Part shown: piece after piece, positions 2,486-32,125 of the stretch
Layout of the letters: every line of letters starts with the position of its first letter
Numbering within the stretch: the stretch's first letter is position 1
Virus record (IMG/VR): IMGVR_UViG_3300024262_000007
Location: 1-40,124 of that record
Strand: one strand, 5' to 3'
DNA from: a virus
Lineage: Duplodnaviria; Caudoviricetes
Length of the DNA stretch: 40,124 bases
Notes under the pieces: model-generated
Database searches by the model: none
What the model was told of the DNA's origin: nothing
What the model saw: only the letters and a program-made list of their open reading frames with translations
Made by a program: the position numbers and the translations under genes

Positions 2486-2503
2486 ACAGTATAATAATAC
2501 TGT
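2486..2503. repeat. Palindromic site ACAGTA-TAATAA-TACTGT
   Basis: 12/12 arms, intergenic. Confidence 0.9.
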
Positions 2504-2535
2504 CGAGAGGCAAATAAGCTGTAAGGAGGAGCCTC

Positions 2536-2754
2536 ATGGTAAATAAAGGAGTAATCGTACTGGGCAGCCTGGCTGTAGGCGGGGTGCTCGTTTTTGCTCT
2601 CACCCGCAAAGGGCAGGCAGCTCCGCCTCCCGGCGGCTGGTGTTGCCCTTATAACTCGGCGCACGGCTGCTTCGAGACGTACGAAGAGCTTGTGCAGCAC
2701 ATACAATCAGTGCACCCTGGAGAACGTATTCCGCTCCCCATCGAGTGGGAGTAG
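2536..2754 (+). CDS. Small membrane protein with C2H2-like zinc finger
   Basis: N-terminal hydrophobic helix; CPY...CFETYEELVQHIQSVH. Confidence 0.7.
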   Translation: MVNKGVIVLGSLAVGGVLVFALTRKGQAAPPPGGWCCPYNSAHGCFETYEELVQHIQSVHPGERIPLPIEWE

Positions 2755-2770
2755 GTAGAAGGAGGCTAAT

Positions 2771-3112
2771 ATGGAAAGACAGATGTTGCAAATGGATGAC
2801 CCCGTATTTCCGCCAAGTGAGAGCAAGACGGCCAAAGCCCCTATCACCGTAAGTCCGGCGGGGTTAAGCTGCCAGGCCGAGCTTTTCCTGGGGACAAGCC
2901 CCACTAACAAGGCGGCCACGTCCGGACTAATCCCGTTTACATCAACGGGGGCCCAGCAGTTAATAAGTCTCCCGGTTACCATGCCAGCTGCAGGCGGGGT
3001 TGCCTATCACGTTTACCTCGATGTCTACGCGGAAGGATATCTCCTTCTCGCCTATCTGGCTACCGAGGACGTGATCATTCCCAGCGGCAGTGTTGGACTG
3101 ATAACCTGGTAG
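2771..3112 (+). CDS. Ig-like beta-sandwich protein (putative virion surface)
   Basis: Paralogous to N-terminal half of 3122-3775; beta-strand pattern. Confidence 0.6.
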   Translation: MERQMLQMDDPVFPPSESKTAKAPITVSPAGLSCQAELFLGTSPTNKAATSGLIPFTSTGAQQLISLPVTMPAAGGVAYHVYLDVYAEGYLLLAYLATEDVIIPSGSVGLITW

Positions 3113-3850: not shown

Positions 3851-3868
3851 ATAGTATTGGAGTATTGT
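3851..3868. repeat. Palindromic site ATAGTA-TTGGAG-TATTGT (degenerate)
   Basis: 10/12 arms, 1 bp before ATG 3870. Confidence 0.6.
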
Positions 3869-4170: not shown

Positions 4171-4188
4171 ACAGTATTTGACTACTGT
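4171..4188. repeat. Palindromic site ACAGTA-TTTGAC-TACTGT
   Basis: 12/12 arms, 1 bp after stop. Confidence 0.9.
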
Positions 4189-4193
4189 CGGAT

Positions 4194-4226
4194 AAGAGAG
4201 CGATTAAAACCCGCTCTCTTCTTTTT
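4194..4226 (+). terminator. Intrinsic terminator
   Basis: AAGAGAGCG/CGCTCTCTT stem then T-run. Confidence 0.75.
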
Positions 4227-4677: not shown

Positions 4678-5132
4678 AGCAGATGCAAATTCGGGCAAAG
4701 AATGGCCGCATCTATGAATATGATTATTCTTTTCCGCGGAATGGTCGTAAGACATCAACACACCACCCGGACTTCCAATACAAAGAGTCATATAAAAATG
4801 AGGCACTACGAAGGTCGAACTATCAGTGTGAAATATGTGCTGCCACCGATAAAAAATTATACGTTCATCACAAAGAGGGATTAGGTGAAGAAAAAACTAA
4901 GAATCCTAACAATGACCGAGGTAACCTTTTAGTGGTATGCGCCTCGTGCCATATGTTGATTCATAAGGTTGGGATTTTCCCAGACGTTAAAGCTATCCGT
5001 CATTTACGGGATAAAGGATACACTCTTCAGTAAATTGGTGAGGTTTTCGGGGTATCTCGTCAAAGAATACACCAGTTATTAAGAAGTGAAGTAGAGCGAT
5101 TAAAGAAGAAAGCTATGGCGGCGAAACCATAG
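4674..5132 (+). pseudogene. HNH endonuclease with C-terminal HTH interrupted by TAA at 5031
   Basis: CEIC..VHH..NN..NL..CASCH; GYTLQ*IGEVFGVSRQRIHQLL continues in frame. Confidence 0.7.
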
Positions 5133-5224
5133 CTTTCTAATGAAAGGAGGTCTGGCGATGGCGGGCAGACACTCTTGTCTAAAATATAGCACCACGCCGG
5201 CGCCTCTGTCAATACGGAGGCCAA

Positions 5225-5416
5225 ATGTCGGATAAGCAGCTCCGGATCCCCGGGCTAGAAACAACCCCACTATTACCCCTAATGATGAGTTACAATCCTC
5301 GTCGGAAGCCGACTGGCTGGCCGGCGGACCGGGTAACATTTCTTGAGAAAAGGATCACCTCTCTAGAGCTGGAGCTAGCAATATTAAAAATTCAGATGGA
5401 GAAGGACTATGCCTGA
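5225..5416 (+). CDS. Hypothetical coiled-coil protein
   Basis: GGAGG SD, 63 aa. Confidence 0.6.
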   Translation: MSDKQLRIPGLETTPLLPLMMSYNPRRKPTGWPADRVTFLEKRITSLELELAILKIQMEKDYA

Positions 5417-5576
5417 GAAGCTGGATAAGAATGTTATTCTCGCGCTCCTGGCCCAGGCGGACAGCAAGTGGTACACCAGCCACCCCGGGCCCATGAATTA
5501 TCGGGAGCACCTGGAGTTCACCGCGGAGTACATCGTCAAGAACTATAATAAGGAAGCCAAGAAAATCAGTACTTAG
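5409..5576 (+). CDS. Hypothetical protein (55 aa)
   Basis: MPEKLDKNVILALLAQ...; stop lies within the spacer of site 5566. Confidence 0.55.
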   Translation: MPEKLDKNVILALLAQADSKWYTSHPGPMNYREHLEFTAEYIVKNYNKEAKKIST

Positions 5577-5583
5577 ATACCGT
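5566..5583. repeat. Palindromic site TCAGTA-CTTAGA-TACCGT
   Basis: 10/12 arms, between stop and SD of dnaN. Confidence 0.75.
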
Positions 5584-5599
5584 AAATAAAGGAGGCGTT

Positions 5600-6730
5600 A
5601 TGAAACTGACTTGTCTACAGGAAAACCTCGATCGGGGCTTGAATATCGTGAGCCGAGCGGTGGCCACCAGGCCGACTCTCCCGATTACCCAGAACATCTT
5701 ACTAACCACGGATAAAGGCCGTCTAAAACTGGCGGCTACTAACCTGGAGATTGCCATCAGCTGCTGGATAGGCGCGAAAGTAGAAGCAGAAGGTGCCATT
5801 ACCCTGCCGGCTAATCTCCTGGGAGACTTTATCCATTCTATGCCGCAAGATACCGTGAGCATTAAACTGTTGCCAGCCGGAAAAATAGTAGAGTTGAAGT
5901 GTACTCGCTTCGAAGGTCGTATTCATGGGGTAGATGCCAAAGACTTCCCGCCAATTCCCGAGGTGGGGGAGGGTCTGAATACTCGAATAGACGTGGAGGC
6001 ATTAAGGCAAGCGATTTCCCGGGTGGTTATAACCGCAGCGACGAAAGACAGCCGTCCTGTGCTCACTGGTGTTTCGGCTAAGTTTAACGGTGATACCTTG
6101 ACCTTGGCCGGGGCTGATGGTTATCGTCTCTCGATTCATAGTGTGCCACTGGCCGAAGCAATTAAGGAAGATGTTGAGGTTATCATCCCGGCGAAAACAC
6201 TCAGAGAGCTCAATAGCTTATTGTCCAATGTGAAGGAGCCGGTTCAGGTGACCATCAACGCGGGGAAAAGCCAGATCCTCTTTCGTTCCAAGGATTTAGA
6301 GGTTGTCTCTCAGTTAATCGTAGGGAGCTTTCCCGATTACATAAAGCTTGTCCCCGAGGGTTTCAAAAGCAAAGTGACTATCGGTGTTGATGAGTTCCGG
6401 CGAGCGGTAAAAGCAGCTTGGGTATTTGCCAGCGAAGGCAAAGGTATTATCCGGATGGTTATCACCCCCGGCGAGGATATCCTTCCTGGAAAGGTTATGG
6501 TGTCGTCAAGTAGTGAGCAGGTTGGGGGGGATGATGGTGAGGTCGACGCAGTGGTTGAAGGAGGCGGCAGGATTGCCTTTGATGGTAAGTTCTTGAATCA
6601 GTTGCTCGGTGTCATCGATGATTCCCAGTTAGTCATGGAGATAAAGGGGGAAAGTTCCCCAGGTCTATTTCTACTTCCCGCCGATGATGCCTATAAGCAC
6701 GTGATCATGCCGACGTTTATTCAGTGGTAG
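5600..6730 (+). CDS. dnaN: DNA polymerase III beta sliding clamp
   Basis: ATNLEIAI, DFPPIP, SRPVLTGV, ADGYRLS, FPDY, IAFDGKFL, HVIMP motifs; 376 aa. Confidence 0.95.
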   Translation: MKLTCLQENLDRGLNIVSRAVATRPTLPITQNILLTTDKGRLKLAATNLEIAISCWIGAKVEAEGAITLPANLLGDFIHSMPQDTVSIKLLPAGKIVELKCTRFEGRIHGVDAKDFPPIPEVGEGLNTRIDVEALRQAISRVVITAATKDSRPVLTGVSAKFNGDTLTLAGADGYRLSIHSVPLAEAIKEDVEVIIPAKTLRELNSLLSNVKEPVQVTINAGKSQILFRSKDLEVVSQLIVGSFPDYIKLVPEGFKSKVTIGVDEFRRAVKAAWVFASEGKGIIRMVITPGEDILPGKVMVSSSSEQVGGDDGEVDAVVEGGGRIAFDGKFLNQLLGVIDDSQLVMEIKGESSPGLFLLPADDAYKHVIMPTFIQW

Positions 6731-6783
6731 GCATTAGCAGAGAACTGTAACTGGCGGCAAATAAACGGAAAGGAGGTAAACCG

Positions 6784-6924
6784 ATGCAAGCATATTGTGT
6801 GAAGTGCAGGGCTAAGAAGGAAATGAAAAACCCCAAGGCCGTAACCATGAAGAATGGTAAGCCTGCGACCCAGGGTGTGTGTCCAACCTGCGGTACGAAG
6901 ATGTTCCGGATTGGCAAGGGCTAA
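6784..6924 (+). CDS. DUF5679-like zinc-ribbon protein (46 aa)
   Basis: MQAYCVKCRAKKEMKNP...GVCPTCGTKMFRIG; AAGGAGG SD. Confidence 0.8.
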   Translation: MQAYCVKCRAKKEMKNPKAVTMKNGKPATQGVCPTCGTKMFRIGKG

Positions 6925-6991
6925 TTTCTCGACTCAGCTCCCCAGCGTTTCTACAGAGCACCAGTTGGGGGGCTGGAATGGAGAAATTAGT

Positions 6992-7009
6992 ACAGTATTA
7001 GCCTACTGT
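6992..7009. repeat. Palindromic site ACAGTA-TTAGCC-TACTGT
   Basis: 12/12 arms; left boundary of duplicated unit. Confidence 0.9.
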
Positions 7010-7019
7010 GGAGAGTATT

Positions 7020-7637
7020 ATGGTGATGGTAGCCAGAAGAACTATCAAGCATAAATGGACTGAGGATGAAGAAGATATCGTCCGGCAGCAATACAAAGGC
7101 AATCATCAGAGTCAAAAGGACATAGCTGACTACCTGAACTATGCCGGCGCCCAACCTCCTATTTCTCAGTTTGCCGTACAGGGTCGGGTAAACAAGCTGG
7201 GACTTGGGCAGAGGGAAAACCGTCGCTGGAGTGAGAGCGAAATGAACCGGCTCCGGGAGTGGACAGGTCGAATCAGGCCGGAGGAGGTGGCGGTCAGGCT
7301 TAAACGAGGAATAGTCTCTGTAATAGTCAAGCAGAAAAAGATGGGACTCTCGCTGCGGGCTAAGGACGGATGGTACACCAAGAAGGATGTGGCGGAAATG
7401 CTCGGCGTCGAGCATAAGAAAGTTCAGCGTTGGATGGATGACGGTTACCTGAAGGCGGTGCCGTATCGAGTGATGCCGCAAAAGAACGGCGGGGGACAGT
7501 GGTATATCGAGGAGAAGGATTTGAGGTGCTTTCTATTGCATTACCCGCAGGAGTTGGTGGGCAGGAACCTTGACGTCGTCCAGATCTTCGATATCCTCGT
7601 TCCTGCCGGCGTAAATGGGTATCATAGCAAACAGTAG
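7020..7637 (+). CDS. DNA-binding protein, Myb-like repeats plus HTH_17, copy 1
   Basis: WTEDEEDIVR / WSESEMNRLR repeats; YTKKDVAEMLGV..KVQRW; 205 aa. Confidence 0.75.
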   Translation: MVMVARRTIKHKWTEDEEDIVRQQYKGNHQSQKDIADYLNYAGAQPPISQFAVQGRVNKLGLGQRENRRWSESEMNRLREWTGRIRPEEVAVRLKRGIVSVIVKQKKMGLSLRAKDGWYTKKDVAEMLGVEHKKVQRWMDDGYLKAVPYRVMPQKNGGGQWYIEEKDLRCFLLHYPQELVGRNLDVVQIFDILVPAGVNGYHSKQ

Positions 7638-7648
7638 AGTAATACCGT
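7631..7648. repeat. Palindromic site ACAGTA-GAGTAA-TACCGT
   Basis: 11/12 arms; contains TAG stop. Confidence 0.9.
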
Positions 7649-7660
7649 GAGGAAGTTATT

Positions 7661-8278
7661 ATGGTGATGGCAACAAGAAGGACAACTAAGCATAAGTGGA
7701 CTCAGGAGGAAGAGGATATTGTCCGCCAGCGGTACCGGGGCACTCATCAGAGTCAGAGGGACATTGCTGACTACCTGAACCACGCCGGCGCCCAGCCTCC
7801 TATATCGCAATTCGCTGTAAGTGGCCGGATATCGAAGCTTGGTATCGGGCAGCGGGAGAACCGGCGTTGGTCAGAGAGCGAGATGAACCGACTGCGGGAG
7901 TGGACCGGACGGTACCCGTCGGCAATGATAGCACAGAAGCTCAAGAGGGGAATAGTTTCAGTAATCGTCAAGATGGAAAAGATGGGGCTCTCCCGGAGAG
8001 CCAAGACGGGCTGGTATACCAAGAAGGATGTGGCGGAGATGCTGGGGGTAGACCATAAGAAGGTCCAGCGGTGGATGGACGATGGATATTTGAAAGCGGT
8101 GCCGTACCAGGAGATGCCGCAAAAGAATGGCGGGGGGCAGTGGTATATAAAGGAAGAGGATGTGAGAGCCTTTCTTCTGAGGTACCCACAGGAACTGGTA
8201 GGCCGCAACCTCGATGTCTGCCAGGTCTTCGATATTCTCGTCCCCGCCGGCGTAAATGGGTATCATAGCAAACAGTAG
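7661..8278 (+). CDS. DNA-binding protein, Myb-like repeats plus HTH_17, copy 2
   Basis: 205 aa, about 36 differences from copy 1 by hand count. Confidence 0.75.
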   Translation: MVMATRRTTKHKWTQEEEDIVRQRYRGTHQSQRDIADYLNHAGAQPPISQFAVSGRISKLGIGQRENRRWSESEMNRLREWTGRYPSAMIAQKLKRGIVSVIVKMEKMGLSRRAKTGWYTKKDVAEMLGVDHKKVQRWMDDGYLKAVPYQEMPQKNGGGQWYIKEEDVRAFLLRYPQELVGRNLDVCQVFDILVPAGVNGYHSKQ

Positions 8279-8289
8279 TTGGATACTGT
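8272..8289. repeat. Palindromic site ACAGTA-GTTGGA-TACTGT
   Basis: 12/12 arms; contains TAG stop. Confidence 0.9.
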
Positions 8290-8331
8290 GCATAAGGAGG
8301 CTATTGGAATGATAAATGTCGTCGAAAGGAA

Positions 8332-8595
8332 TTGGCCGACAAACTTATCGAGTCCGGAGTTTCAGAGGATGAAGCGAACCAGGTTGCCTCTAAAGAGGTT
8401 GACTCCCTGGGGATCGCCAAGACCTCCACTGGTCAATGTCCTCTGGGTCATGCAAGCCCCATGGCTTATATGTTCTGCCAGTATGGCCATATGACTGATT
8501 GTCATTACCCGTTGAGCTGTGAGCAAGCTAATTGCAGTCATCACCAATCCGAGGTAATCGATGCTGGGGAGTATGCCGGCTTCTTGGAGGAGTGA
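8332..8595 (+). CDS. Cys/His-rich hypothetical protein (start uncertain)
   Basis: CPLGH..FCQYGH..CHYP..C...CSH; the SD at 8294-8300 has no in-frame ATG. Confidence 0.5.
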   Translation: MADKLIESGVSEDEANQVASKEVDSLGIAKTSTGQCPLGHASPMAYMFCQYGHMTDCHYPLSCEQANCSHHQSEVIDAGEYAGFLEE

Positions 8596-8613
8596 AAAGT
8601 AATCTAATACTGG
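8596..8613. repeat. Palindromic site AAAGTA-ATCTAA-TACTGG (degenerate)
   Basis: 10/12 arms; directly after stop, before tRNA. Confidence 0.65.
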
Positions 8614-8622
8614 TAGCGGTGT

Positions 8623-8697
8623 CGCGGGGTAGAGCAGTGGCAGCTCACCGGCCCCATAAGCCGGAGGTCGAGGGTTCGAATCCCTCCCCCGCTACCA
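8623..8697 (+). tRNA. tRNA-Met(CAT), initiator-like but atypical
   Basis: Cloverleaf: CGCGGGG/CCCCGCT acceptor, GAGC/GCTC D stem, CCGGC/GCCGG anticodon stem with CAT, GAGGG-TTCGAAT-CCCTC T arm, encoded CCA. Confidence 0.9.
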
Positions 8698-8706
8698 AGG
8701 AGCAAT

Positions 8707-9138
8707 ATGAAAGCGCTTAGTGGTTATGCAGAATGGTTTTGGCTCATGGCCAAGAACTGGAAGGATGTCGAGAATCGGAACTGGTCGCTTACCAGGTACA
8801 TTAAGCGGGATGAGCTCCCGGTCCGTGTTTACCTGCATGCCAGCAAGAAGCCGGCCAGCAAGGAAGATATTACTTTCATCCGGTCAAGACTAACGCCGGC
8901 GCAACGGCAGGAGTTTGATATGGTGGACTGGGGGAGATATCGGGGTGCTATCATCGGTCAGATAACCATCGCTGATGAGGTAACCATGGACGACTGGGGT
9001 ATGCCGGCTACTCATTCGCCCTGGTTCTTTGGGACATATGGCTTTGTAGTCAAGGATGGTGAGCTATACGACAGGCCATTCCCCTGTAAGGGGCAATTGG
9101 GCTTCTTCCCTTTGGAACTGGAGGGGATACCTCGCTAG
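8707..9138 (+). CDS. ASCH domain protein
   Basis: KDVENRNW, LHASK, GAIIG, PWFFG, CKGQLGFF. Confidence 0.85.
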   Translation: MKALSGYAEWFWLMAKNWKDVENRNWSLTRYIKRDELPVRVYLHASKKPASKEDITFIRSRLTPAQRQEFDMVDWGRYRGAIIGQITIADEVTMDDWGMPATHSPWFFGTYGFVVKDGELYDRPFPCKGQLGFFPLELEGIPR

Positions 9139-9177
9139 AACCTTACCAGCGGCCCCAGGATGGCAAATGGAGAGGGT

Positions 9178-9357
9178 ATGAGTGGAACATCGAGTAAGAC
9201 GACCTTAATAACGCTACGGCTACCTAATGAAGTGGTGTATACACTAAGGCGTAGGATTGACGGTAGGCGTACCCACTGGTCAAGTGTTGGGGAATACCTG
9301 CAAGAACGGATAATCTATGACACGCAGCGTAGTCATAATCTGAGGCGAAGTAAATAG
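9178..9357 (+). CDS. Ribbon-helix-helix-like DNA-binding protein
   Basis: TTLITLRLPNEV...SVGEYLQERI. Confidence 0.55.
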   Translation: MSGTSSKTTLITLRLPNEVVYTLRRRIDGRRTHWSSVGEYLQERIIYDTQRSHNLRRSK

Positions 9358-9371
9358 TATGAGTGTACTGT
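9354..9371. repeat. Palindromic site ATAGTA-TGAGTG-TACTGT
   Basis: 11/12 arms; contains TAG stop, followed by GGAGG. Confidence 0.85.
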
Positions 9372-9383
9372 GGAGGTAAAGAG

Positions 9384-9581
9384 TTGATCAGATGCCCGGT
9401 ATGTAAACAGCCTACGGGAACTTACAATGCACCTGGTGAAGAGCCGGGCACCATGGTGATTAAGGATTACCCGCTGTATCAGAAGAGTTATCCTGGACAG
9501 CCGGAATATCTGCCTCCTCGGTGCCTTGAGTGCTATGAGAAGGTTGAGGCCCGAAGAGCCAGGAAAGAACAAACAGTATAA
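9384..9581 (+). CDS. Small zinc-finger protein
   Basis: CPVC...CLEC; TTG start after GGAGGT. Confidence 0.6.
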   Translation: MIRCPVCKQPTGTYNAPGEEPGTMVIKDYPLYQKSYPGQPEYLPPRCLECYEKVEARRARKEQTV

Positions 9582-9590
9582 GCATACTGT
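9573..9590. repeat. Palindromic site ACAGTA-TAAGCA-TACTGT
   Basis: 12/12 arms; TAA stop in spacer. Confidence 0.9.
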
Positions 9591-9604
9591 CGTAAGGAGG
9601 GACT

Positions 9605-9865
9605 ATGCCAAAAACAGAGGTGAAAAATATATGGGAGAGACCGGACGTGTTAGATAGTTTCGAAACCAAGAGAGAGAAACGGAGAGCATTAAACCCCCGG
9701 CTGACCTTTGACTGCTTCAATGCGCATGCTCGAGGAGATAGAGTTGTCTGCGTCAAGGGTTATCACTTGGGTTGTAGCAATGATGGCTCTTTGTATCTAG
9801 CTAGCGTTCTCGAGGGAATCGCATCGGCTAAGTGCAAAAGCTGCCCCGATTTTAATGGTGATTGA
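9605..9865 (+). CDS. Cys-rich hypothetical protein
   Basis: AAGGAGG SD; DCFN..C..CKSCPDF. Confidence 0.65.
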   Translation: MPKTEVKNIWERPDVLDSFETKREKRRALNPRLTFDCFNAHARGDRVVCVKGYHLGCSNDGSLYLASVLEGIASAKCKSCPDFNGD

Positions 9866-9882
9866 CAGTATTCCTATACTAT
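9865..9882. repeat. Palindromic site ACAGTA-TTCCTA-TACTAT
   Basis: 11/12 arms; overlaps TGA stop. Confidence 0.85.
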
Positions 9883-9892
9883 GGAGGAAGGT

Positions 9893-10036
9893 ATGGCAGT
9901 AGAATTAGAAAACCATAAGGGTGAATGGTGTGTAATAAAGCGCGGTATATTTTGCCAAGAAGGTTACTGTTCCGAATGCCAGATTTACAAGGACAATTTA
10001 AAAATGACCAAAGAAGAAGCGGGGGATCATGAGTAG
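9893..10036 (+). CDS. Small Cys-rich protein (47 aa)
   Basis: WC...FCQEGYCSECQIY; GGAGG SD. Confidence 0.6.
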   Translation: MAVELENHKGEWCVIKRGIFCQEGYCSECQIYKDNLKMTKEEAGDHE

Positions 10037-10445
10037 TTTCACTACCCCGCTGGTGGTCTCGCCTTTACCTGATGGACGACGCTGGAGGTTATACCTTGCT
10101 TTCGTCTATCACGTCGGCGACCGGTGGAGCCGAGATGTTATCTGTGTGCCGAGAGGTTTTATCACTGATTTTGCTAGTATACCAAAGGTTATCTTCTGGC
10201 TACTTCCTTGGTGGGCAAAGTTTAGTAAACCCTCCCCTTTGCACGATTGGCTCTACACGGCACAGCAAATCCAGGGCAAGCCGATTACACGGAGAAAGGC
10301 TGATGATATATTTTACGAGGCCATGCTGATTGCGTTCCGTGACCATATATCAGGGAAGCTCGTAGCTTTTATTGAATATTGGGCGGTGCGGCTCTTCGGT
10401 TGGCCGGCATGGCACTTTAGAAAAGAAGTGAGAGATCAACAGTAG
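10029..10445 (+). CDS. DUF1353 family protein
   Basis: VPRGFITDFASIP...LHDWLY...RRKADDIFYEAM. Confidence 0.85.
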   Translation: MSSFTTPLVVSPLPDGRRWRLYLAFVYHVGDRWSRDVICVPRGFITDFASIPKVIFWLLPWWAKFSKPSPLHDWLYTAQQIQGKPITRRKADDIFYEAMLIAFRDHISGKLVAFIEYWAVRLFGWPAWHFRKEVRDQQ

Positions 10446-10456
10446 AGGGATACTGT
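10439..10456. repeat. Palindromic site ACAGTA-GAGGGA-TACTGT
   Basis: 12/12 arms; contains TAG stop. Confidence 0.9.
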
Positions 10457-10471
10457 AGAAAGGAGGACAGG

Positions 10472-10759
10472 TTGACTAGACTCAATGGGAAGCAAGACCT
10501 TTCCAAGACACAACTCTTGGAAAGAGCTAGTCGTCACCGACGGCGTAAACATTGGTTAGAGCAACCCCCTGGGACAGTTCCACGAGAATTCCGTCAATTC
10601 GGTCAGCCTATATTCCGACCAGTGCGTCGGCTAGCCGAGAAGGCAGTTCCTTTTGACACCATCGAAAAAGAGATGAGACTGAGACGGTCTATCTGGCAAA
10701 GGGCAAGAGATTTCTACAACCAGCGAATTAAGGGAAGGTTACAGAGAAGGCAACAGTAG
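10472..10759 (+). CDS. Arg-rich hypothetical protein
   Basis: AAGGAGG SD, TTG start; fills the inter-site unit. Confidence 0.6.
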   Translation: MTRLNGKQDLSKTQLLERASRHRRRKHWLEQPPGTVPREFRQFGQPIFRPVRRLAEKAVPFDTIEKEMRLRRSIWQRARDFYNQRIKGRLQRRQQ

Positions 10760-10770
10760 TGCAATACTGT
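10753..10770. repeat. Palindromic site ACAGTA-GTGCAA-TACTGT
   Basis: 12/12 arms; contains TAG stop. Confidence 0.9.
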
Positions 10771-10788
10771 CGCATGACGGGAGAGTAG

Positions 10789-11442
10789 ATGAGAGTACTA
10801 ATAGCTTGTGAATTTAGTGGAATAGTGAGAGAAGCATTTACCAAGCGGGGACATGATGCTTGGAGCTGCGACCTGCTACCAAGTGAAATCCCAGGTCAGC
10901 ACATTCAGGGTGATATTAGGCTTACTCTTTTAAAAACTTGGGACATAATGATTGCCCACCCACCCTGCACTCATCTCGCTGTGTCGGGAGCACGGCATTT
11001 TGCTGAAAAAAGAGCAGATGGCCGGCAACAAGCAGCAATCGACTTCTTTATGTCTCTGGCTAATGTTGAGATACCTCACATCTGTATCGAAAATCCGGTA
11101 GGCATTATGTCCACGCTCTGGAGAAAGCCAGACCAGATAATTCAGCCGTATGAGTTCGGGCACCCCGAGAGTAAAAAGACTTGTCTGTGGCTGAAAGGGT
11201 TGCCGAAATTAGTGCCGACTGACATTCTGGAGCCGGTGTATAAAAAGAATCCGGACGGTTCCGATTACAAAGACAGCGGCGGAAGTCGGTATTCAGAGAA
11301 ACATTATTATAGGCCAAAGGCATACTGGGAGAATCAAACGCCGAGTGGTCAGAATAAATTGCCGCCATCCGAAGATAGATGGAAATTACGCTCTCGTACG
11401 TATCGAGGAATAGCGAGTGCTATGGCAGAGCAGTGGGGCTAA
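10789..11442 (+). CDS. Phage DNA cytosine methyltransferase-like protein
   Basis: VLIACEFSG, SCD, HPPCT catalytic motif, IENPVG, KKTCLW. Confidence 0.8.
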   Translation: MRVLIACEFSGIVREAFTKRGHDAWSCDLLPSEIPGQHIQGDIRLTLLKTWDIMIAHPPCTHLAVSGARHFAEKRADGRQQAAIDFFMSLANVEIPHICIENPVGIMSTLWRKPDQIIQPYEFGHPESKKTCLWLKGLPKLVPTDILEPVYKKNPDGSDYKDSGGSRYSEKHYYRPKAYWENQTPSGQNKLPPSEDRWKLRSRTYRGIASAMAEQWG

Positions 11443-11450
11443 ATTAATGC

Positions 11451-11468
11451 ACAGTACAAGGGTACTAT
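11451..11468. repeat. Palindromic site ACAGTA-CAAGGG-TACTAT
   Basis: 11/12 arms; between stop and SD. Confidence 0.85.
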
Positions 11469-11483
11469 GAAAGGAGGAAAGCA

Positions 11484-11729
11484 ATGGTAATCGAAAAGCT
11501 AGAATTTGATTTGGCACGCATGCATCAGGTCATCCTATCAAGTGTCCTCTCGGAGGAAGATATACAAAGGTTGGGGGTAGATGGCGATATCCGGCTATTT
11601 CAGGAAGCTAGCGACTGGCTGAAGGCGCATCCCAATTACTGTCTGATTGATGTCGGGTTTCACCAGTCTGGTGATGTGTCACCCAGGGAAGAAGGCGCCC
11701 GCCTTATATTGTACGTTGAGCCAGTATAA
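11484..11729 (+). CDS. Hypothetical protein
   Basis: AAGGAGG SD, 81 aa. Confidence 0.65.
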   Translation: MVIEKLEFDLARMHQVILSSVLSEEDIQRLGVDGDIRLFQEASDWLKAHPNYCLIDVGFHQSGDVSPREEGARLILYVEPV

Positions 11730-11732
11730 GCC

Positions 11733-13621: not shown

Positions 13622-13629
13622 AGTAACGC

Positions 13630-14287: not shown

Positions 14288-14329
14288 AAAAAGGGGCCCA
14301 GGGGATATCTCCCCCAGGCCCTCTCTTTT
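14288..14329. terminator. Bidirectional terminator where the two arrays converge
   Basis: A-run, GC-rich hairpin, T-run. Confidence 0.7.
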
Positions 14330-14331: not shown

Positions 14332-14349
14332 ACGGTAGTCTAGTACTGT
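14332..14349. repeat. Palindromic site ACGGTA-GTCTAG-TACTGT
   Basis: 11/12 arms; after last gene of leftward array. Confidence 0.85.
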
Positions 14350-14355
14350 TTTCGC

Positions 14356-14628
14356 TTATAGCTTACTACCACTCCTTTTACGCCGGCTATCTTTCATTTG
14401 GAGTCCAACATATCCGCCAGCAGCATACTCAGCTCGGGCTTCGACGAGGCGACACATAGCAATATTGTAGAACTCGGCAAACTTATTGTCTTTGGAGAAG
14501 ACTACGAACTTGCTGTCCGCTAGTATACCGTCGAACTCACAAGCTTTGCCCCACAGTTGGCGAGCCGTTGCTGCTAAGCTCGCAATATATTGCTGTCCCT
14601 GTCTGTTAAGAGCTTCCTGTTTAGTCAC
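14356..14628 (-). CDS. Hypothetical protein
   Basis: GTG start after GGAAGGAGG; fills the inter-site unit. Confidence 0.65.
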   Translation of the reverse strand: MTKQEALNRQGQQYIASLAATARQLWGKACEFDGILADSKFVVFSKDNKFAEFYNIAMCRLVEARAEYAAGGYVGLQMKDSRRKRSGSKL

Positions 14629-14644
14629 AAGATTCCCTCCTTCC

Positions 14645-14662
14645 ACAGTATCGGGATACCGT
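14645..14662. repeat. Palindromic site ACAGTA-TCGGGA-TACCGT
   Basis: 11/12 arms; between stop and SD on - strand. Confidence 0.88.
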
Positions 14663-14663
14663 C

Positions 14664-14966
14664 TTATGGACATTCAGCGCGGAGCTTGTCAGCTCGTTTC
14701 TGTAGCGCCTTCGGCACGAAGTAGACCATGATCGCCGTGAGCGGCGCCATGTACCAGTGGTGCCTTATCAACGAGCCGGCCAGCTCCCGGAAATACTGGG
14801 CATCAGAGGCCAGCCACTTGGCCGCAGTTCGTTGAGCTTCACAATCATTCCCGGTGTCAAGCCAGTCCAACACTGAAATATACTTAGACCGGGGAATGAA
14901 GCCGTTACCGAGAAAGTAATCGGCATCAGCCTTAACGACGTCGGCTATTAGTCCAGTCAATTTCAC
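14664..14966 (-). CDS. Hypothetical protein
   Basis: GTG start after AAGGAGGT; fills the inter-site unit. Confidence 0.65.
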   Translation of the reverse strand: MKLTGLIADVVKADADYFLGNGFIPRSKYISVLDWLDTGNDCEAQRTAAKWLASDAQYFRELAGSLIRHHWYMAPLTAIMVYFVPKALQKRADKLRAECP

Positions 14967-14984
14967 AATAATACCTCCTTTCTT

Positions 14985-15002
14985 ACAGTATAGAGATACT
15001 GT
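14985..15002. repeat. Palindromic site ACAGTA-TAGAGA-TACTGT
   Basis: 12/12 arms. Confidence 0.9.
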
Positions 15003-15006
15003 CTGT

Positions 15007-15249
15007 TTATAGTGAAGCTTTTCTGTCACGCCGGGAATACCGCATTAAATGCCGGTATGCCATCCACTCAATCTGCCTCACACGTTCCGGAGTAACATTC
15101 AGGTCTAGGCCAACTTCTCTTAAAGTGCGGCCTTTTAATCTCTCCCGAATCACATGTTTTCGCCTTGGTTCCAGCTTATCAATAAAGCGCTCAAAGCCTG
15201 GATAATTATTCTTTAATTCCTCTATATACATTGAGACACCTTTCGACAT
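15007..15249 (-). CDS. Sigma70 region-4-like HTH protein
   Basis: LEPRRKHVI..RTLREVG..LNVTPERVRQIE. Confidence 0.8.
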   Translation of the reverse strand: MSKGVSMYIEELKNNYPGFERFIDKLEPRRKHVIRERLKGRTLREVGLDLNVTPERVRQIEWMAYRHLMRYSRRDRKASL

Positions 15250-15264
15250 ATAACCACCTCCTTT

Positions 15265-15405
15265 CTAACAGTCTACTGTGTATTTGGGGTTTCTGCGTTT
15301 CCACTCGTCTAAAAGTTCGCGAAGGTCCGCAATATTCCCCCGACCTGTCAACCCTTTAGCAATTTCCGTAAAGATAGCAGTCTCAAGTTCCTTGTCGCTC
15401 ATCAT
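15265..15405 (-). CDS. Small hypothetical protein (46 aa)
   Basis: MMSDKELETAIFTEIAKG...; AAAGGGGG SD. Confidence 0.55.
   Translation of the reverse strand: MMSDKELETAIFTEIAKGLTGRGNIADLRELLDEWKRRNPKYTVDC
15268..15279. repeat. Collapsed palindromic site ACAGTCTACTGT (6 bp short)
   Basis: Both arms present at the expected position before the SD. Confidence 0.55.
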
Positions 15406-15416
15406 TCCCCCTTTCT

Positions 15417-15434
15417 ACAGTATCGTACTACTAT
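15417..15434. repeat. Palindromic site ACAGTA-TCGTAC-TACTAT
   Basis: 11/12 arms; contains - strand TAG stop. Confidence 0.85.
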
Positions 15435-15793
15435 TTTACTACTTCAGGAATAAGGAATTTCTCTCGTTCTTGGCGGTAGATAGTCATCTGGCCATCGGCG
15501 TCTATCGTCTTAGCAATAAAGCCTACCTCGTAGAATTTATTCATGTTGGCGATTTCGGCATTGAAGTGGTCGATATCTGGGCATTTGACTAGGTCGAGGT
15601 CGCCCTCGGCATAGGTCTGGACCTGCAGGAGCTTCTTGTTTATCCAGACTCCGAAGTACCAGGCGTCTTGGCTGGTATCATATTGTTCCCACCCTTGGGC
15701 ACTAAAGTCCTCGTCAAAGTCCCACCGGTACCGCTCCCCATTATTAATGAAGCTTCGAAAGACTTCATTACCACGTTTGTTAATTTCAGGCAC
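15431..15793 (-). CDS. Hypothetical phage protein
   Basis: GWEQYDTSQDAWYFGVW..TYAEGD; GTG start after AAGGAGGT. Confidence 0.7.
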   Translation of the reverse strand: MPEINKRGNEVFRSFINNGERYRWDFDEDFSAQGWEQYDTSQDAWYFGVWINKKLLQVQTYAEGDLDLVKCPDIDHFNAEIANMNKFYEVGFIAKTIDADGQMTIYRQEREKFLIPEVVK

Positions 15794-15811
15794 AATTACA
15801 CCTCCTTTCTG

Positions 15812-15829
15812 ACAGTATACAAATACTGT
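15812..15829. repeat. Palindromic site ACAGTA-TACAAA-TACTGT
   Basis: 12/12 arms. Confidence 0.9.
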
Positions 15830-20462: not shown

Positions 20463-20480
20463 ACAGTATCCTAATACTGT
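20463..20480. repeat. Palindromic site ACAGTA-TCCTAA-TACTGT
   Basis: 12/12 arms; just downstream of leftward promoter. Confidence 0.9.
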
Positions 20481-20820: not shown

Positions 20821-21750
20821 TCAACGCTTCTTTTGCCAGAGGGGAAGGAAGGGGTGAATTGAGTAAACGACCTTATCGATACCATGAGGGTCAGTGTCAA
20901 GGATCTCGGGGTGGCGGTAAAGGCCGACCATAGCCACGCCGCCAAAAAAGCCACCCATAGACTTCCGGCTCCAGCCAGAATAGTCCGCGATGAGAGCCGG
21001 ATCATAATTGTTCTTCGGCAGGGCACCGGCTATGATCGTGGTTAGCGTGTGGCGAATACCGTGCCAACCCCATCCGTACTGGTGCTCAAGCCCCGCCTTG
21101 ATACATATTCGCTTAAACATTAGGGATAAAGAAGAGGGGTTATGATCCCTTGGCCGGTAATCAGCAAATATCGGTTTGAGAGCCTCAGGAATAAGGTGCT
21201 TTACAACCCTACCATGCTTGGAATGGTGAATGGTAAAAAAAGTGTCGTCGAAGTCCCGTTTCTTGATGCGCGAAAGGTCTTCTCTTCGGACAATAAAGGT
21301 TGTGGCCACAGCCAGGTAGAACCTCTCGGCAGGGGAATACTTCCCCCGGGCTTTTATCATCTGTTCGATCTGCTCGGGTAAAAGAGGGTGGGACTGAGCC
21401 TCGTCTTCAGGGTAAGGGGTATCATCCGCTTCAAAGGGCCAGGGCCAGCCATTGGCAAGCGCCAGTTTCTTGACGTGGAAGAACTCCTTGCGCAGGGTAC
21501 GTTCGCTGATCCCCTCGCGGCGCCGGCGGATAAAGAACTGTCGGAAGTCACTGTCGGTCGGTACCTGTTTATCCTTGAGGACTTTGAGAAAGTTGGAACC
21601 GGTGACCAGGTAACTGGATAATGTACCGGGGGCCCGGAGCCGTGGCGATGAGAGCCGTTCAACCAATCTGTCCAGAGCCGGGTGCAGCTTGGTAGCAATC
21701 TTGTTGGCATTGGCCAACGCCTTTCTTTTGGTCTTAGCACGAGTTGTCAT
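20821..21750 (-). CDS. Tyrosine recombinase (Xer/Cre-like, no arm-binding domain)
   Basis: Catalytic R (VRREDL), K (SKHG), HGIRH, W (SGW), Y (GLYRH); 309 aa. Confidence 0.88.
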   Translation of the reverse strand: MTTRAKTKRKALANANKIATKLHPALDRLVERLSSPRLRAPGTLSSYLVTGSNFLKVLKDKQVPTDSDFRQFFIRRRREGISERTLRKEFFHVKKLALANGWPWPFEADDTPYPEDEAQSHPLLPEQIEQMIKARGKYSPAERFYLAVATTFIVRREDLSRIKKRDFDDTFFTIHHSKHGRVVKHLIPEALKPIFADYRPRDHNPSSLSLMFKRICIKAGLEHQYGWGWHGIRHTLTTIIAGALPKNNYDPALIADYSGWSRKSMGGFFGGVAMVGLYRHPEILDTDPHGIDKVVYSIHPFLPLWQKKR

Positions 21751-22701: not shown

Positions 22702-22719
22702 ACAGTAACATTGTACTAT
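22702..22719. repeat. Palindromic site ACAGTA-ACATTG-TACTAT
   Basis: 11/12 arms; overlaps -10 of recombinase-operon promoter. Confidence 0.8.
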
Positions 22720-28764: not shown

Positions 28765-28788
28765 AGAAAGAGAACTATCTGGCGGCTA
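28740..28788 (+). other. Putative -1 programmed frameshift signal
   Basis: A_AAA_AAA in frame, then 14-bp hairpin 28751-28764/28775-28788 with three G-U pairs. Confidence 0.7.
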
Positions 28789-31235
28789 ATGATATTCAGG
28801 AAAGCCGCATCCGCCATGACCTCGGCAAGAGCGTCAACGAAGAGCAAGAGGCAGCCGACAAGTACCGCGATCGGAGCGAATACGCCTCCGGCGCTGGGGA
28901 CAAAGAGACATCTCAACTTTACGAGCACATTGCGGGGGAAGAGGATACCCACAAGAGGGAGTTCCAGGAGCGTGGGCAGAAGCTATCTAAACAGTATTCT
29001 ACTACTGAGCATGTCCCCCAGACCAAGAAGGAGTACTGGGTCAAGATAACCAAACGCGGCGCCAGCTCCTTCAGCGAAGGCTCTCTTATCAGGTGGGAAG
29101 AGTTCAAGGCAGATGACAGAAAGGTCAGAGAGCGTGGGGAAGAGCCAGCCTCCGTCGAGATTGTCAAAGAGCCACACCCGGGTAATGGGAATGGCGACAA
29201 GGAACTTCCGGCCACCGTCCAGGGCGAGCCGATCCCCGACAAGTATCGCACGCTGATACCCCTAATCGATGAGCCACTGCCGCCCGACAGTGATTACCTG
29301 GTGCCGGCGATTGTCCCCGAGGAAGGGGAGCGGAAGATTGACGCCGTACTCCGGCAGCTGAAGGAAGGCGTTGAGGGTATCCAGAACAGTGAACAGTTCC
29401 GGACATTCCTTACCACGATGGCCAAGTTCCATGAGTACTCGTTGGGCAATCAGATCCTTATCGCATTACAGAAGCCAGAGGCCACCCGGGTAGCCGGTTT
29501 CCAGACCTGGAAGAACCTCGGTCGCTTTGTGAAGAAGGGTGAAGCGGGCATCGCTATTCTGGCGCCTATAATGCCGCGCAAGCAGAAGAAGGAAGATGAG
29601 GAAGATGAAGAGTCGCCGCTGAGTCCGGTTTATTTCAAAGTTGTGCATGTTTTTGATGTCAGCCAGACCGAGGGCCAGCCGCTTCCGGAGTTTGAAGTAC
29701 CGAGTCTTACCGGCGAGGCCAATGAAGAGTTGTTTACAAAGGCGTTGGCACTAGCCAAAGGTCAGGGGCTGGAAGTAAGTTTTGACCCCATGCCGTCGCA
29801 GGATCCGGGGCTGAAGGGTTTTTACTCAGGTAAAAAGATATGGGTGAAGCCCGATGAGCCCAGGGCACAGCAGCTCAAGACATTACTTCATGAGATGGCG
29901 CATTACTATTCTGAGGGAGTCTTCCGAATACCCAGGGCGGATGCGGAAACGATTGCCGAAAGTGCTGCCTTTGCTGTGGGGGCCCACTTCGGCTTTGACA
30001 GCGGCATAAGGTCATTCCCTTACGTCGCCCTCTGGTCGCAGGACCCGAAAGTGCTCAAGGCCAACCTTGGCTCAGTCCGGAAGGTGACCAGTATTATGCT
30101 CGAGGGGCTAGAAGACACGAAAGTAGGGCATTATGAGACAATAATCCCTGCCTTTGATGAAACCTTTGGACTACGGAAGCGTGAATTTGATAATAGGAAC
30201 AAGCCAAGGTCTGAATGGATAAGGCGGGAAGAAAATAAGTTGGTGCCAGCTCTAAAGCCTTTCGAGCCGTACCACTTTGCCGAGTTTGTCCTGAGGTATA
30301 ACCGCTTCAGTGATGCTGAGATACCTATTTATAGTGGGCTTACCGGCAAGGCTCCGCTGCGGATCCCCGACCATATTTGGAGAGAGGTAATTGAGGAGAC
30401 TGAAGGCGAATTTATCAAGCAGGGTGAGCTTAACGTCTTCCAGATTCCTGAAAAGGAAAGGCCGGCTTACATGAGAGCAGCGCCGACTTGGAGAGATATT
30501 GCTTCTACTGTTCCAGAGAGCCACCCAGTAATACCTAAGGGGAGATACCCTGAAGTTGAAAATGGAATTGACCAAAAATTGTCTACATGGGCGAAAGAGC
30601 TATCTGTATCGCTTCCGAATTGGTATTTTGCAGAGAACGTTAATTTCGGCTATGATCCTGAGACAAAAATAATTGTATTACCAAGCGATCTCTCAAATGC
30701 AGTGGAGGGTGAAGATTTTAAATACCTGTGGTTCTGGATAGCACATGAATTTGGCCATCATTATATAAGTGATAAGAAGATGGATTTTAAGGAACTCTTT
30801 GATGAGGAAACCTATGCTTCGGATATTGCTACTCAGCTTACTACTTATCAAAGTGGCTATGCTTGGAAAGCCCTTCACGACTTATTGCCAAGGATATGGA
30901 AACAGGAAGTAGCGAAGGAGGGGAAAATGAGAATTGGTGAGGATGGCAAATTATATCTAAATGTCGAGGGAGAAGACATACAGTTATTACCTTTTAATTT
31001 CAAGGTTGCTAATGACCCCATTTGCTATGCTAAAAACGTGAAGAGTGGTAAGGTTGAAAGGCTAAGTCCAGTTGGCCATCAGAAAATTACCATTCTTCCT
31101 TCCAGTCCTAGAGAAGAGTTGGAATTCGTCGCCGACTCCCCTGAACTGATACCTTTCACCATCGACGATATCGGGTACCGTGACAAGTTAGATAATGCCT
31201 TCGAGATGGCAATCGCTAAAGTCCAAGGGGGCTAG
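28746..31235 (+). CDS. Polyvalent protein: ferritin-like motif, ArdC-like ssDNA-binding domain, two HExxH zincin domains (frame open from 28674)
   Basis: YEHIAGEEDTH; FHEYSLGNQILI..VAGFQTWK.LGR.VKKGE..VFDVSQTEG; HEMAH..AES; HEFGH. Confidence 0.8.
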   Translation, partial: STGRQVEKENYLAANDIQESRIRHDLGKSVNEEQEAADKYRDRSEYASGAGDKETSQLYEHIAGEEDTHKREFQERGQKLSKQYSTTEHVPQTKKEYWVKITKRGASSFSEGSLIRWEEFKADDRKVRERGEEPASVEIVKEPHPGNGNGDKELPATVQGEPIPDKYRTLIPLIDEPLPPDSDYLVPAIVPEEGERKIDAVLRQLKEGVEGIQNSEQFRTFLTTMAKFHEYSLGNQILIALQKPEATRVAGFQTWKNLGRFVKKGEAGIAILAPIMPRKQKKEDEEDEESPLSPVYFKVVHVFDVSQTEGQPLPEFEVPSLTGEANEELFTKALALAKGQGLEVSFDPMPSQDPGLKGFYSGKKIWVKPDEPRAQQLKTLLHEMAHYYSEGVFRIPRADAETIAESAAFAVGAHFGFDSGIRSFPYVALWSQDPKVLKANLGSVRKVTSIMLEGLEDTKVGHYETIIPAFDETFGLRKREFDNRNKPRSEWIRREENKLVPALKPFEPYHFAEFVLRYNRFSDAEIPIYSGLTGKAPLRIPDHIWREVIEETEGEFIKQGELNVFQIPEKERPAYMRAAPTWRDIASTVPESHPVIPKGRYPEVENGIDQKLSTWAKELSVSLPNWYFAENVNFGYDPETKIIVLPSDLSNAVEGEDFKYLWFWIAHEFGHHYISDKKMDFKELFDEETYASDIATQLTTYQSGYAWKALHDLLPRIWKQEVAKEGKMRIGEDGKLYLNVEGEDIQLLPFNFKVANDPICYAKNVKSGKVERLSPVGHQKITILPSSPREELEFVADSPELIPFTIDDIGYRDKLDNAFEMAIAKVQGG
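28991..29008. repeat. Palindromic site ACAGTA-TTCTAC-TACTGA (intragenic)
   Basis: 11/12 arms. Confidence 0.6.
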
Positions 31236-32117
31236 ATGTCTTATATAGAGGATGAGGGGAAAGTCATTGGCGATGCGCTCGGTGTAAGATATGACGGCCC
31301 TCAATATTATAAGGAAGACTTCAAGTTCCATCTTTTCACTGACCCCCTCACAGGCTTCACATTTGCTGGTACGTCTTTGGAGGATAGCAAAAAGCGGCTT
31401 GGGAAGATGAGAAGGCAATTCGGCATTTCTCAAGAAAAGTCACCCTCCACACATCCCTTAGTGCTCGAGCGTTTCCCCTATCCGGCTCCGGAGCAGATGG
31501 GGTTGGATATTGGGGGTATCGGCGAGCTAAAGGTAGAGATTCCACCTCCCCGAGGGAGCAAGCTTGAAGAAGGATCGGTTATACGCACTAGCGAAAAGCA
31601 CGATAAAGCCGTTGAACACCTCGGCTACCACTCCGTCAGTTTGAGCGATGATGAGATATCCTTACTCGAAACGAAAGTCCCCACGGATATAGATGTAATC
31701 AACGAATCTCAAAACCGGCTTAGGGAGACGAAGATTATCCCGGATGATCAGCTTAGTTCCGCGCAGCTCGGGCACTTGAACCTTGCCAGGGCAATCGCAA
31801 AGGGTGTCGGCTGTATTCCCCCGGCCGGGATATATGCCGCTGTCATCCCGCCGGCCAGTGACAGGGTAAGGACCGCCGGGCTTTATGGAACCAAGAGTGG
31901 TGCACTATACCTATCTATAGATATGCTTTCGAAAGGTCGAGACGCATTTGATACACTTGTTCACGAACTGGGGCATCATCGCCAGTTCACCAGCAGCGGC
32001 GAGGCGGAGGATTTAACCCCCAGCCACGCAGAGGCCATGACAGATATTGCTAAGAAGTTAATCCAGGGCTTGAACTCGGGCGATTACGATAAACTACTCG
32101 TAGATACACAGTATTGA
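31236..32117 (+). CDS. Zincin-motif protein
   Basis: AGLY...TLVHELGHH. Confidence 0.7.
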   Translation: MSYIEDEGKVIGDALGVRYDGPQYYKEDFKFHLFTDPLTGFTFAGTSLEDSKKRLGKMRRQFGISQEKSPSTHPLVLERFPYPAPEQMGLDIGGIGELKVEIPPPRGSKLEEGSVIRTSEKHDKAVEHLGYHSVSLSDDEISLLETKVPTDIDVINESQNRLRETKIIPDDQLSSAQLGHLNLARAIAKGVGCIPPAGIYAAVIPPASDRVRTAGLYGTKSGALYLSIDMLSKGRDAFDTLVHELGHHRQFTSSGEAEDLTPSHAEAMTDIAKKLIQGLNSGDYDKLLVDTQY

Positions 32118-32125
32118 CATACAGT
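32108..32125. repeat. Palindromic site ACAGTA-TTGACA-TACAGT
   Basis: 11/12 arms; spacer is a -35 hexamer and contains the TGA stop. Confidence 0.75.

Follow-up and report, generated by a model that had tools for sequence, protein, structure and literature searches.

IMG/VR record IMGVR_UViG_3300024262_000007 is a complete circular virus with direct terminal repeats, and the window analysed here is its whole sequence of 40,124 bases. Its genes are set between short palindromes, ACAGTA-N6-TACTGT, which are gathered in a short, a right-going and a left-going array and recur on either side of a tyrosine recombinase gene, inside one long reading frame and ahead of the virion genes (Table 1). Sequence comparison with relatives indicates that the 6-bp spacers of these sites are position-specific addresses, and that the arrays are ordered, address-coded slots of a kind that is outside every family tested and is not an integron.

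The comparison set is composed of 85 recombinase-bearing loci, 11 contigs of one metagenome-assembled genome (MAG) and three virus records. The metagenome loci were compared as fragments of up to 20 kb; L009-L012 and L018 (the window itself) are excluded from every count, and L001, L002, L004, L006 and L008, with one or two sites each, were set aside. Runs X1-X4 are represented by contigs only, from which rare forms have been dropped.

Sites and the units between them

An earlier note on this DNA, made from its letters alone, had listed 23 sites, ten of them with perfect arms, and every coordinate was reproduced in the window: 10 sites are perfect, 10 have one mismatch and 3 have two, against 0.002 perfect matches expected. 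When up to three mismatches are allowed, there are 36 matches where shuffled sequences have 9.8 +/- 3.5, and 0 of 100 shuffles reach 36. All 23 spacers differ from one another. The one departure from the rule that sites stand at gene boundaries, which the note had also singled out, is 28991, which is read in frame, at a domain junction of one long reading frame. The Shine-Dalgarno (SD) sequence said to follow the sites of the accessory arrays is mostly present, an SD-like word lying within 6 nt of the right arm in 41 of the 53 modules of the window and its close relatives, a count that uses a loose SD pattern and consensus arms and includes one near-duplicate twice. The stop codon that had been described as overlapping or abutting the next site mostly does so: it falls inside that site in 26 of the 53 modules and no more than 3 nt before it in 13, comes earlier in 12, and is missing from two that have no open reading frame (ORF).

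The cargo of the right-going array includes a clamp, DUF5679, two helix-turn-helix (HTH) paralogues, tRNA-Met, DUF1353, a DNA methyltransferase and ORFans. Two DnaN-like sliding clamp genes occur in the window, one (5600-6730) as slot cargo and the other (18242-19492), with an acidic tail, in the conserved core. The tRNA-Met gene (8623-8697) is slot cargo immediately after site 8596, and is also found in L098.

Table 1. Sites, arrays and associated features of the window; sites are named by their spacers
Feature	Position	Strand	Remarks
Site TAATAA	2486..2503	+	Opens short array; same spacer in L105 and distant G005
Site TTGGAG	3851..3868	+	Same spacer in L101, flanks unrelated on both sides
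Site TTTGAC	4171..4188	+	Closes short array; hairpin and T run then follow (~4194-4226)
Right-going array	5566..11468	+	11 sites and decayed GCAGAG
Site CTTAGA	5566	+	Right-going array
Decayed site GCAGAG	6731	+	Right-going array; 3 mismatches, at clamp gene stop
Site TTAGCC	6992	+	Right-going array
Site GAGTAA	7631	+	Right-going array
Site GTTGGA	8272	+	Right-going array
Site ATCTAA	8596	+	Right-going array
Site TGAGTG	9354	+	Right-going array
Site TAAGCA	9573	+	Right-going array
Site TTCCTA	9865	+	Right-going array
Site GAGGGA	10439	+	Right-going array
Site GTGCAA	10753	+	Right-going array
Site CAAGGG	11451	+	Right-going array
Terminator-like hairpin	14294..14321	-	Directly after last left-array site
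Left-going array	14332..15829	-	Five sites and decayed GCCGAA
Site CTAGAC	14332	-	Left-going array
Site TCCCGA	14645	-	Left-going array
Site TCTCTA	14985	-	Left-going array
Decayed site GCCGAA	15268..15279	-	Left-going array; arms kept, 6 bp missing
Site GTACGA	15417	-	Left-going array
Site TTTGTA	15812	-	Left-going array
Extra match	18634-18651		2 mismatches, within second clamp gene
Site TTAGGA	20463..20480	-	Downstream of recombinase; CTAGGA in close relatives
Tyrosine recombinase	20821..21750	-	309 aa, core-binding and catalytic domains; candidate enzyme
Site CAATGT	22702..22719	-	Upstream of recombinase operon; overlaps promoter -10 box
Site TTCTAC	28991..29008	+	In frame as QYSTT, domain junction of frameshift-extended ORF
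Site TTGACA	32108..32125	+	Precedes virion gene block; spacer is -35 consensus
Predicted single jelly-roll capsid protein	34047..34682	+	Model pLDDT 91.5
Extra match	37633-37650		1 mismatch, in virion-module gene; compared in two close contigs

Spacer order and replacement of slot contents

In the arrays of close relatives the spacers keep their places. The right-going order in this clade is CTTAGA, TTAGCC, GAGTAA, GTTGGA, ATCTAA, TGAGTG, GACTGA, GCCAAG, TAAGCA, TTCCTA, GGTGAA, GAGGAG, GAGGGA, GTGCAA, CAAGGG, and the left-going order is TTTGTA, GCCGAA, TCTCTA, ATAGGA, GACCAA, TCCCGA, TCTTAA, CTAGAC; each genome carries a subset of these ordered spacers, and about 29 array addresses occur within the one clade. 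All 98 order relations between spacers shared across relatives are concordant. Pairs of arrays have 2-5 spacers in common where 0.04-0.15 would be expected (11 of 11 pairs tested), left and right arrays have none in common, and 6 of 26 array spacers are private. Sites that are orthologous by their flanks carry identical spacers in 12 of 14 pairs (5.4 expected), the spacers of the remaining two being 3-4 bases apart and none one base apart; their arms differ at 8 of 168 positions. Distant relatives, with recombinase identities of 41-66%, retain GAGTAA, GGTGAA or GTTGGA, and CTAGAC.

Spacers of the same genome also avoid each other, as expected if matching sites within one molecule would delete or invert DNA. 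Among the 253 spacer pairs of the window, 0 are within one mismatch in either orientation, compared with 7.4 in column shuffles (P=0.0008); for G005 taken by itself, the corresponding result falls short of significance (P=0.37).

The contents of the slots, in contrast to their addresses, are replaced. Among 95 pairs of sites with the same address, the DNA is unrelated on both sides in 62, upstream only in 22, downstream only in 6 and on neither side in 5. Where upstream flanks are unrelated, no more than one base beyond the arm is common in 69 of 84 pairs; where downstream flanks are unrelated, 0-2 bases are common in 52 of 68, and 8-15 bases, which comprise the SD word, in 15. The slot between GTGCAA and CAAGGG thus holds mutually unrelated modules of 680, 651 and 334 bp and that between GACCAA and TCCCGA unrelated modules of 457, 224 and 192 bp, while differing modules of 296 and 258 bp are enclosed by GAGGGA-GTGCAA and of 257, 1829 and 277 bp by TCTTAA-CTAGAC. 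Most modules are unique among the arrays compared. In contigs of groundwater runs X3 and X4, 10456 is linked to 10753 through other DNA, and one contig of run X2 matches the window solely at 10438-10770; L022 and L024 are identical through TCTTAA plus 9 bases and are unrelated thereafter. That breaks in relatives should fall at the sites had been put forward in advance as the check on an exchange system, and inside arrays 8 of 11 homology-block ends are indeed no further than 20 bp from a site, where 12% would be expected to be so close.

The most finely located exchange is at 20463. Upstream, all 50 informative differences over 860 bp split L013 and L019 from L021 and L092, the last of them at -4, whereas downstream, after base +5, the module splits L013 and L021 (window-type) from L019 and L092, which are 100% identical there in the first two 200-bp bins. 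As all four flank combinations are represented, an exchange between genomes must have fallen within 26 bp around the site, bypassing some 800 bp of upstream DNA of 88-96% identity. The modules exchanged here are of a replication type, the alternative one encoding a primase/helicase-like protein. The palindrome of 20463 reaches about 11 bp per arm in several relatives, and a conserved word follows the site in the window (20440-20462, minus strand) and in relatives; we take it to resemble the boxA antitermination signal.

Two other isolated sites recur in relatives beside differing DNA. The in-frame site at 28991 is also found in L103, L031, L033, G001 and L087 (as TTCCAC in the last) with domains that differ up- or downstream, and a coding coincidence was dropped as its explanation because relatives keep it in frame beside different domains. 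The spacer of 32108 recurs in L031, L033, L087, L103 and L104 with differing flanks, and the homology blocks of L031 and L033 stop at 32125.

A candidate recombinase and the proposed exchange

The tyrosine recombinase encoded between 20463 and 22702 scores 30 bits against PF00589 (cut-off 27.1), and the top Foldseek matches of its model are XerA, the lambda Int core and Cre (prob 1.00, TM score 0.38-0.56). Among 120 homologues, residues that we take to be the tyrosine-recombinase catalytic set are kept as follows: R156 in 120, K178 in 117, H230 in 99, R233 in 115, W260 in 108 and Y278 in 117. A profile search returned 93 clusters at E <1e-30; no match was found in cultured phage or plasmid records or among Protein Data Bank sequences, and scans of the viral collection with the protein or its alignment found nothing, those scans being insensitive, as they missed the G001 homologue (41%). 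A longer form of 410-435 aa with a duplicated N-terminal domain also occurs (P0008, P0009, P0018, P0036; L074, L071, L059), in several cases with D in place of the catalytic H230; in L074, L071 and L059 it stands in island-like contexts.

Gene and sites are linked. Where a locus offers enough DNA, the stretch of 1.5 kb upstream of the recombinase contains a site in 38 of 47 cases (chance about 5%) and the 0.9 kb downstream in 40 of 49 (about 3% by chance), and of 13 window proteins compared the recombinase alone is present in all 19 site-bearing loci. As loci were collected via the recombinase, the linkage means that sites come along with the gene; it does not make the gene a requirement for sites. 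The pair of sites accompanies the gene even into tRNA-linked islands that have a separate integrase or resolvase, for which reason the recombinase is probably not, on this distribution, the enzyme of integration; no integration through the motif is seen, and L083, L085 and L059 have a separate integrase at a tRNA. Islands of this kind, at tRNA-Ser or tRNA-Lys or with a resolvase, bear the recombinase, sites and viral core genes in L085/L083 (3750-20918), L059, L074 and L089. In 400 other genomes of the host class the motif is at background, with one perfect match in each of 6 (exact matches only), which argues against a host regulator or host dif site.

Tyrosine recombinases act as tetramers that cut at the spacer edges, and exchange is completed only with matching spacers. 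The reading we favour, and regard as likely, is that slot contents are exchanged between co-resident genomes, in a spacer-matched manner, by the virus's own recombinase; fixed positions and order with replaced contents fit a double crossover between genomes. The palindromes would bound gene slots, and the recombinase, cleaving at spacer edges, would recombine matching addresses only. When a cell contains two related circles, these would be joined into a cointegrate at address X and resolved at address Y, by which the DNA between X and Y would be swapped. Within a single genome, the mismatch between spacers would prevent deletions and inversions among its many sites. Such exchange would preserve the order, SD and operon placement of each gene, and would penalise both mutation and duplication of a spacer. 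New slot alleles probably come from rare mismatched events or from illegitimate capture followed by trimming. Part of the earlier proposal of recombinase-driven units is thus retained, in that the sites delimit exchangeable, mostly promoterless units with the virus's own recombinase as the best candidate enzyme. The integron-style insertion and integron-like array that went with it are not, since spacers stay with position, order is kept and contents are replaced.

Several observations weigh against spacer-matched exchange as the whole account. The near-clonal L021-L024 entered the order and sharing tests, whose counts are therefore not independent; the order of GGTGAA and GTTGGA differs in distant G001 and G005; and spacers drift at both recombinase-flanking sites. 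Relatives have 4 of 298 within-record pairs within one mismatch, three of which differ at an edge base, the fourth being an identical pair in the tailed-phage fragment L007. The conserved arms, of 6-7 bp, are short for a recombinase without an arm-binding domain, those of Xer and Cre being 11-13 bp. Genome-wide, only 11 of 100 homology-block ends come as close as 20 bp to a site, most off-site ends being divergence or indels in the core, and some gains and losses have one or both ends off-site (L021/L024; 11468-11733). HTH paralogues occupy two slots in the window and yet another in X3/X4; the address that closes gene 9363 is TAAGCA in the window and GACTGA in X3; and the arm variant TACTAT is common to unrelated downstream modules at CAAGGG and TTCCTA, which is not expected if arms always travel with their own module. 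Neither a cointegrate nor an excised circle is present in the run contigs, and those of run X1, possibly the run from which the window came, have no joint at any site, rare forms having been dropped from such contigs.

Among other explanations, the one that survives best, although we think it improbable, is that the same recombinase inserts and excises circular cassettes without spacer matching, in an integron- or Tn916-like manner, each cassette bringing a spacer and excision leaving one of two. This would explain the slot changes, the private GTACGA inserted before GCCGAA, and the TAAGCA or GACTGA found after one gene, and it may run at low frequency beside the main mode. It predicts scrambled order, however, where all 98 order pairs agree, and roughly as many new spacers as new modules, where few array spacers are private and most modules unique; nor does it give spacers a reason to avoid each other.

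About as improbable is the possibility that the sites persist as binding sites with a part in regulation or in organising the DNA, and that short-homology, RecT-like recombination at 18-27 identical bases exchanges the modules, as has been proposed for phage boundary sequences and PeSLs. Matching spacers would be needed there too, shared arm variants fit whole-site homology, some breakpoints are off-site, and a RecT-like protein is encoded in G001. The 76 window proteins, however, include no annealing protein by Pfam/PHROG, the crossover at 20463 ignored long similar DNA immediately upstream, and the motif follows a recombinase that is catalytically intact, judged by its residues, into unrelated islands.

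Far less likely is a role of the sites solely as operators or stoperator-like roadblocks of one master regulator with incidental mosaicism, the alternative that had been kept open earlier. The site format does resemble an HTH-dimer operator. One overlap with a promoter is clear, as 22702 covers the -10 box of TTGACA-18-TACAAT at 22739-22710, so that binding may also regulate and this site probably provides, by its position, autoregulation of the recombinase; two others are partial, 2486 (whose left arm and spacer spell TATAAT) and 32108 containing promoter hexamers, though 32108 is not among the promoters listed by the promoter scan. Similar repeats are described in passages on Cluster O mycobacteriophages (PMC4351075). 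Against this, the four strongest promoters (4442, 13630, 25897, 27725) have no site, two sites immediately precede terminators and another is part of a reading frame, an operator has no need of spacers that are position-fixed or mutually avoiding, and of the 13 window proteins compared the recombinase alone accompanies all 19 site-bearing loci, which were themselves collected with it. Action of a XerC/D-type enzyme of the host, on the model of Acinetobacter pdif, has the 6-bp spacer, the exchange logic and a second, XerA/C-like recombinase beside the G001 array in its favour, and is hardly credible given the symmetric arms without an ATAA/TTAT core and the lack of a conserved chromosomal copy in the 400 class genomes (exact match only).

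The proposed spacer-matched exchange by the viral enzyme has its closest known counterpart, going by the portions of the reports that describe it, in the pdif (xrs) modules of Acinetobacter, for which spacer-matched cointegrates and replacement of single modules are reported (PMC13141974; bioRxiv 10.1101/2024.04.09.588662; PMC5790767). In both, modules lie between tyrosine-recombinase sites with variable 6-bp spacers, which in pdif must be identical or nearly so, and sequence comparison shows module replacement between matching spacers in the viral arrays as well. The defining arms and orientation fail: pdif, as described there, is used by host XerC and XerD on plasmids, through asymmetric 11-bp arms in alternating C/D orientation, and the viral sites have neither XerC/XerD arms, nor an ATAA-N6-TTAT core, nor that alternation, having symmetric ACAGTA/TACTGT arms of 6-7 bp and a single element-encoded candidate enzyme. 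Matching spacers within one plasmid allow inversions and deletions in pdif, whereas here spacers avoid each other, are fixed in position across a virus family, and bound slots that are mostly promoterless operon units.

Integrons share with the arrays promoterless SD-ORF-stop units, stops that overlap the site and a linked tyrosine recombinase, and phage-borne integron parts have been described (PMC9892861, in the passages on them). The arrays have no single insertion point, and a fixed order in which the same address pair holds unrelated modules. No NCBIfam model, that of the integron integrase included, matched the recombinase at E 0.01, where the latter model did match a G001 control protein. 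The long imperfect attC hairpin with a GTT/AAC core is absent, conservation being confined to 18 bp with flanks unrelated from the first base; arm mismatches are not biased to G-U pairs (13 of 38), and an RNA-hairpin reading of the sites was rejected, as the other 25 are not G-U.

Engineered cassette exchange with heterospecific Cre/loxP sites relies on one recombinase, symmetric arms, compatibility encoded in the spacer and exchange between two different spacers. The viral system would have all of these, but is natural, with about 29 array addresses in one clade and sites of 18 bp instead of 34 bp. PeSLs of the T4-type phages RB49 and phi1 are likewise repeated intergenic elements where ORFans are gained, lost and replaced; in the passages on them they are promoter-terminator repeats of about 100 bp that recombine by homology and form mini-circles, without a dedicated recombinase or positional code (PMC2839356), whereas the sites here are of 18 bp and most array sites have no promoter or terminator match. 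Cluster O 17-bp palindromes and Cluster A stoperators also number in the tens per genome as short palindromic or intergenic repeats; the passages on the palindromes give Cluster O spacers as mostly TTT/AAA, a third of them in genes, in phages without an integrase, with no positional code and no mention of module exchange (PMC4351075). In the literature searched, which was mostly without subscription papers and supplements, neither the motif nor a viral system of this kind was found described.

A wider claim can be offered only tentatively and is somewhat doubtful: that self-contained, fixed and mutually incompatible 6-bp addresses read by one compact recombinase form a shared standard across tailless viruses, tailed phages and Dehalococcoidia islands, by which genes, replication modules and in-frame domains are swapped, so that the whole would be a naturally occurring machine for multiplex cassette exchange on 18-bp sites. 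The tailed-phage fragments L007 and G412 (20% and 66% complete) have sites at module ends, with no recombinase in the sequence available: 706 and 8833 in L007 (G006), 2942 and 3252 in G412, with spacers ATCTAA and GAGTAA also known from the window; in L007 ATCTAA occurs twice, around terminase and portal. A broad motif scan returned 120 viral loci, 3 of them with a second site, and its matches are mostly chance; G130, G247 and G265 have a single match each and no recombinase homologue.

Phage mosaicism is usually ascribed to illegitimate or short-homology recombination followed by selection. This virus family appears instead to have exchange points built into the genome, and a positional code under which contents can change without loss of gene order or expression context, so that programmed modular evolution becomes testable with one protein and 18-bp substrates. 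If true, multiplex cassette exchange would also gain an attractive tool, as one recombinase would serve very short sites with about 29 largely non-cross-reacting natural spacers.

The virus, its host and other features

A tailless virion with a capsid of the single jelly-roll type is predicted, because the model of 34047-34682 best matches the SPV1 capsid protein (6oj0; Z 9.3, root-mean-square deviation 3.5, 142 residues aligned, 7% identity, Foldseek prob 1.00), a moderate score with the runner-up at Z 6.9. The virus seems to represent a lineage of bacterial viruses, so far undescribed, whose capsid is SPV1-like; scans of the viral collection with the capsid protein returned G005 only. The virion block (33507-39598), in which that protein is encoded, has no family matches, and no head, portal or terminase family was matched among the 76 window proteins (Pfam/PHROG). 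As none of the 76 has a Walker A motif, DNA may be packaged without an ATPase. Dehalococcoidia are the likely host, an assignment drawn from named homologues of the recombinase and capsid candidate, which are in Chloroflexota and Dehalococcoidia records, one being binned in an archaeal MAG. Circular double-stranded DNA and the capsid fold recall Portogloboviridae (SPV1), for which the portions of the source consulted give a genome of about 20 kb and a Sulfolobales host, as against 40,124 bases and a probably bacterial host here. The Dehalococcoides IME1 viruses, as partly described, have the Dehalococcoidia host in common; identity with IME1 was rejected, as its pI ATPase, primase-helicase and resolvase are not found by Pfam/PHROG.

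Of the decayed sites, GCCGAA is intact in a run X2 contig, L021 and L092, and the hairpin after CTAGAC is kept in relatives with differing upstream modules. The hairpin after 4171 was read off the sequence and is absent from the terminator-scan listing; tRNA is the only Rfam match in the window. The two extra matches, at 18634 and 37633, are of the quality of the listed sites but absent from the earlier note; that at 18634 is probably coincidental, judging from its loss in more distant homologues. In L056 a truncated host-type peptide ABC transporter operon (10579-13715) lies between the recombinase site and the viral array, its junction off-site, through capture or misassembly. The complete 42-kb relative L110 (G001) has, around its array (5078-12419), a pilin-like gene, tRNA-Leu, the second XerA/C-like recombinase and the RecT-like protein.

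A candidate programmed -1 frameshift at 28738-28792 (plus strand), where a strong stem (z -6.6) comes after a slippery run of A, would extend 27883-28764 into the frame ending at 31235, and the signal is present in 11 of 13 loci checked. That frame is open for 827 aa without a start codon of its own and has weak ferritin-like, ArdC-N and M78 matches, its domain content varying among relatives.

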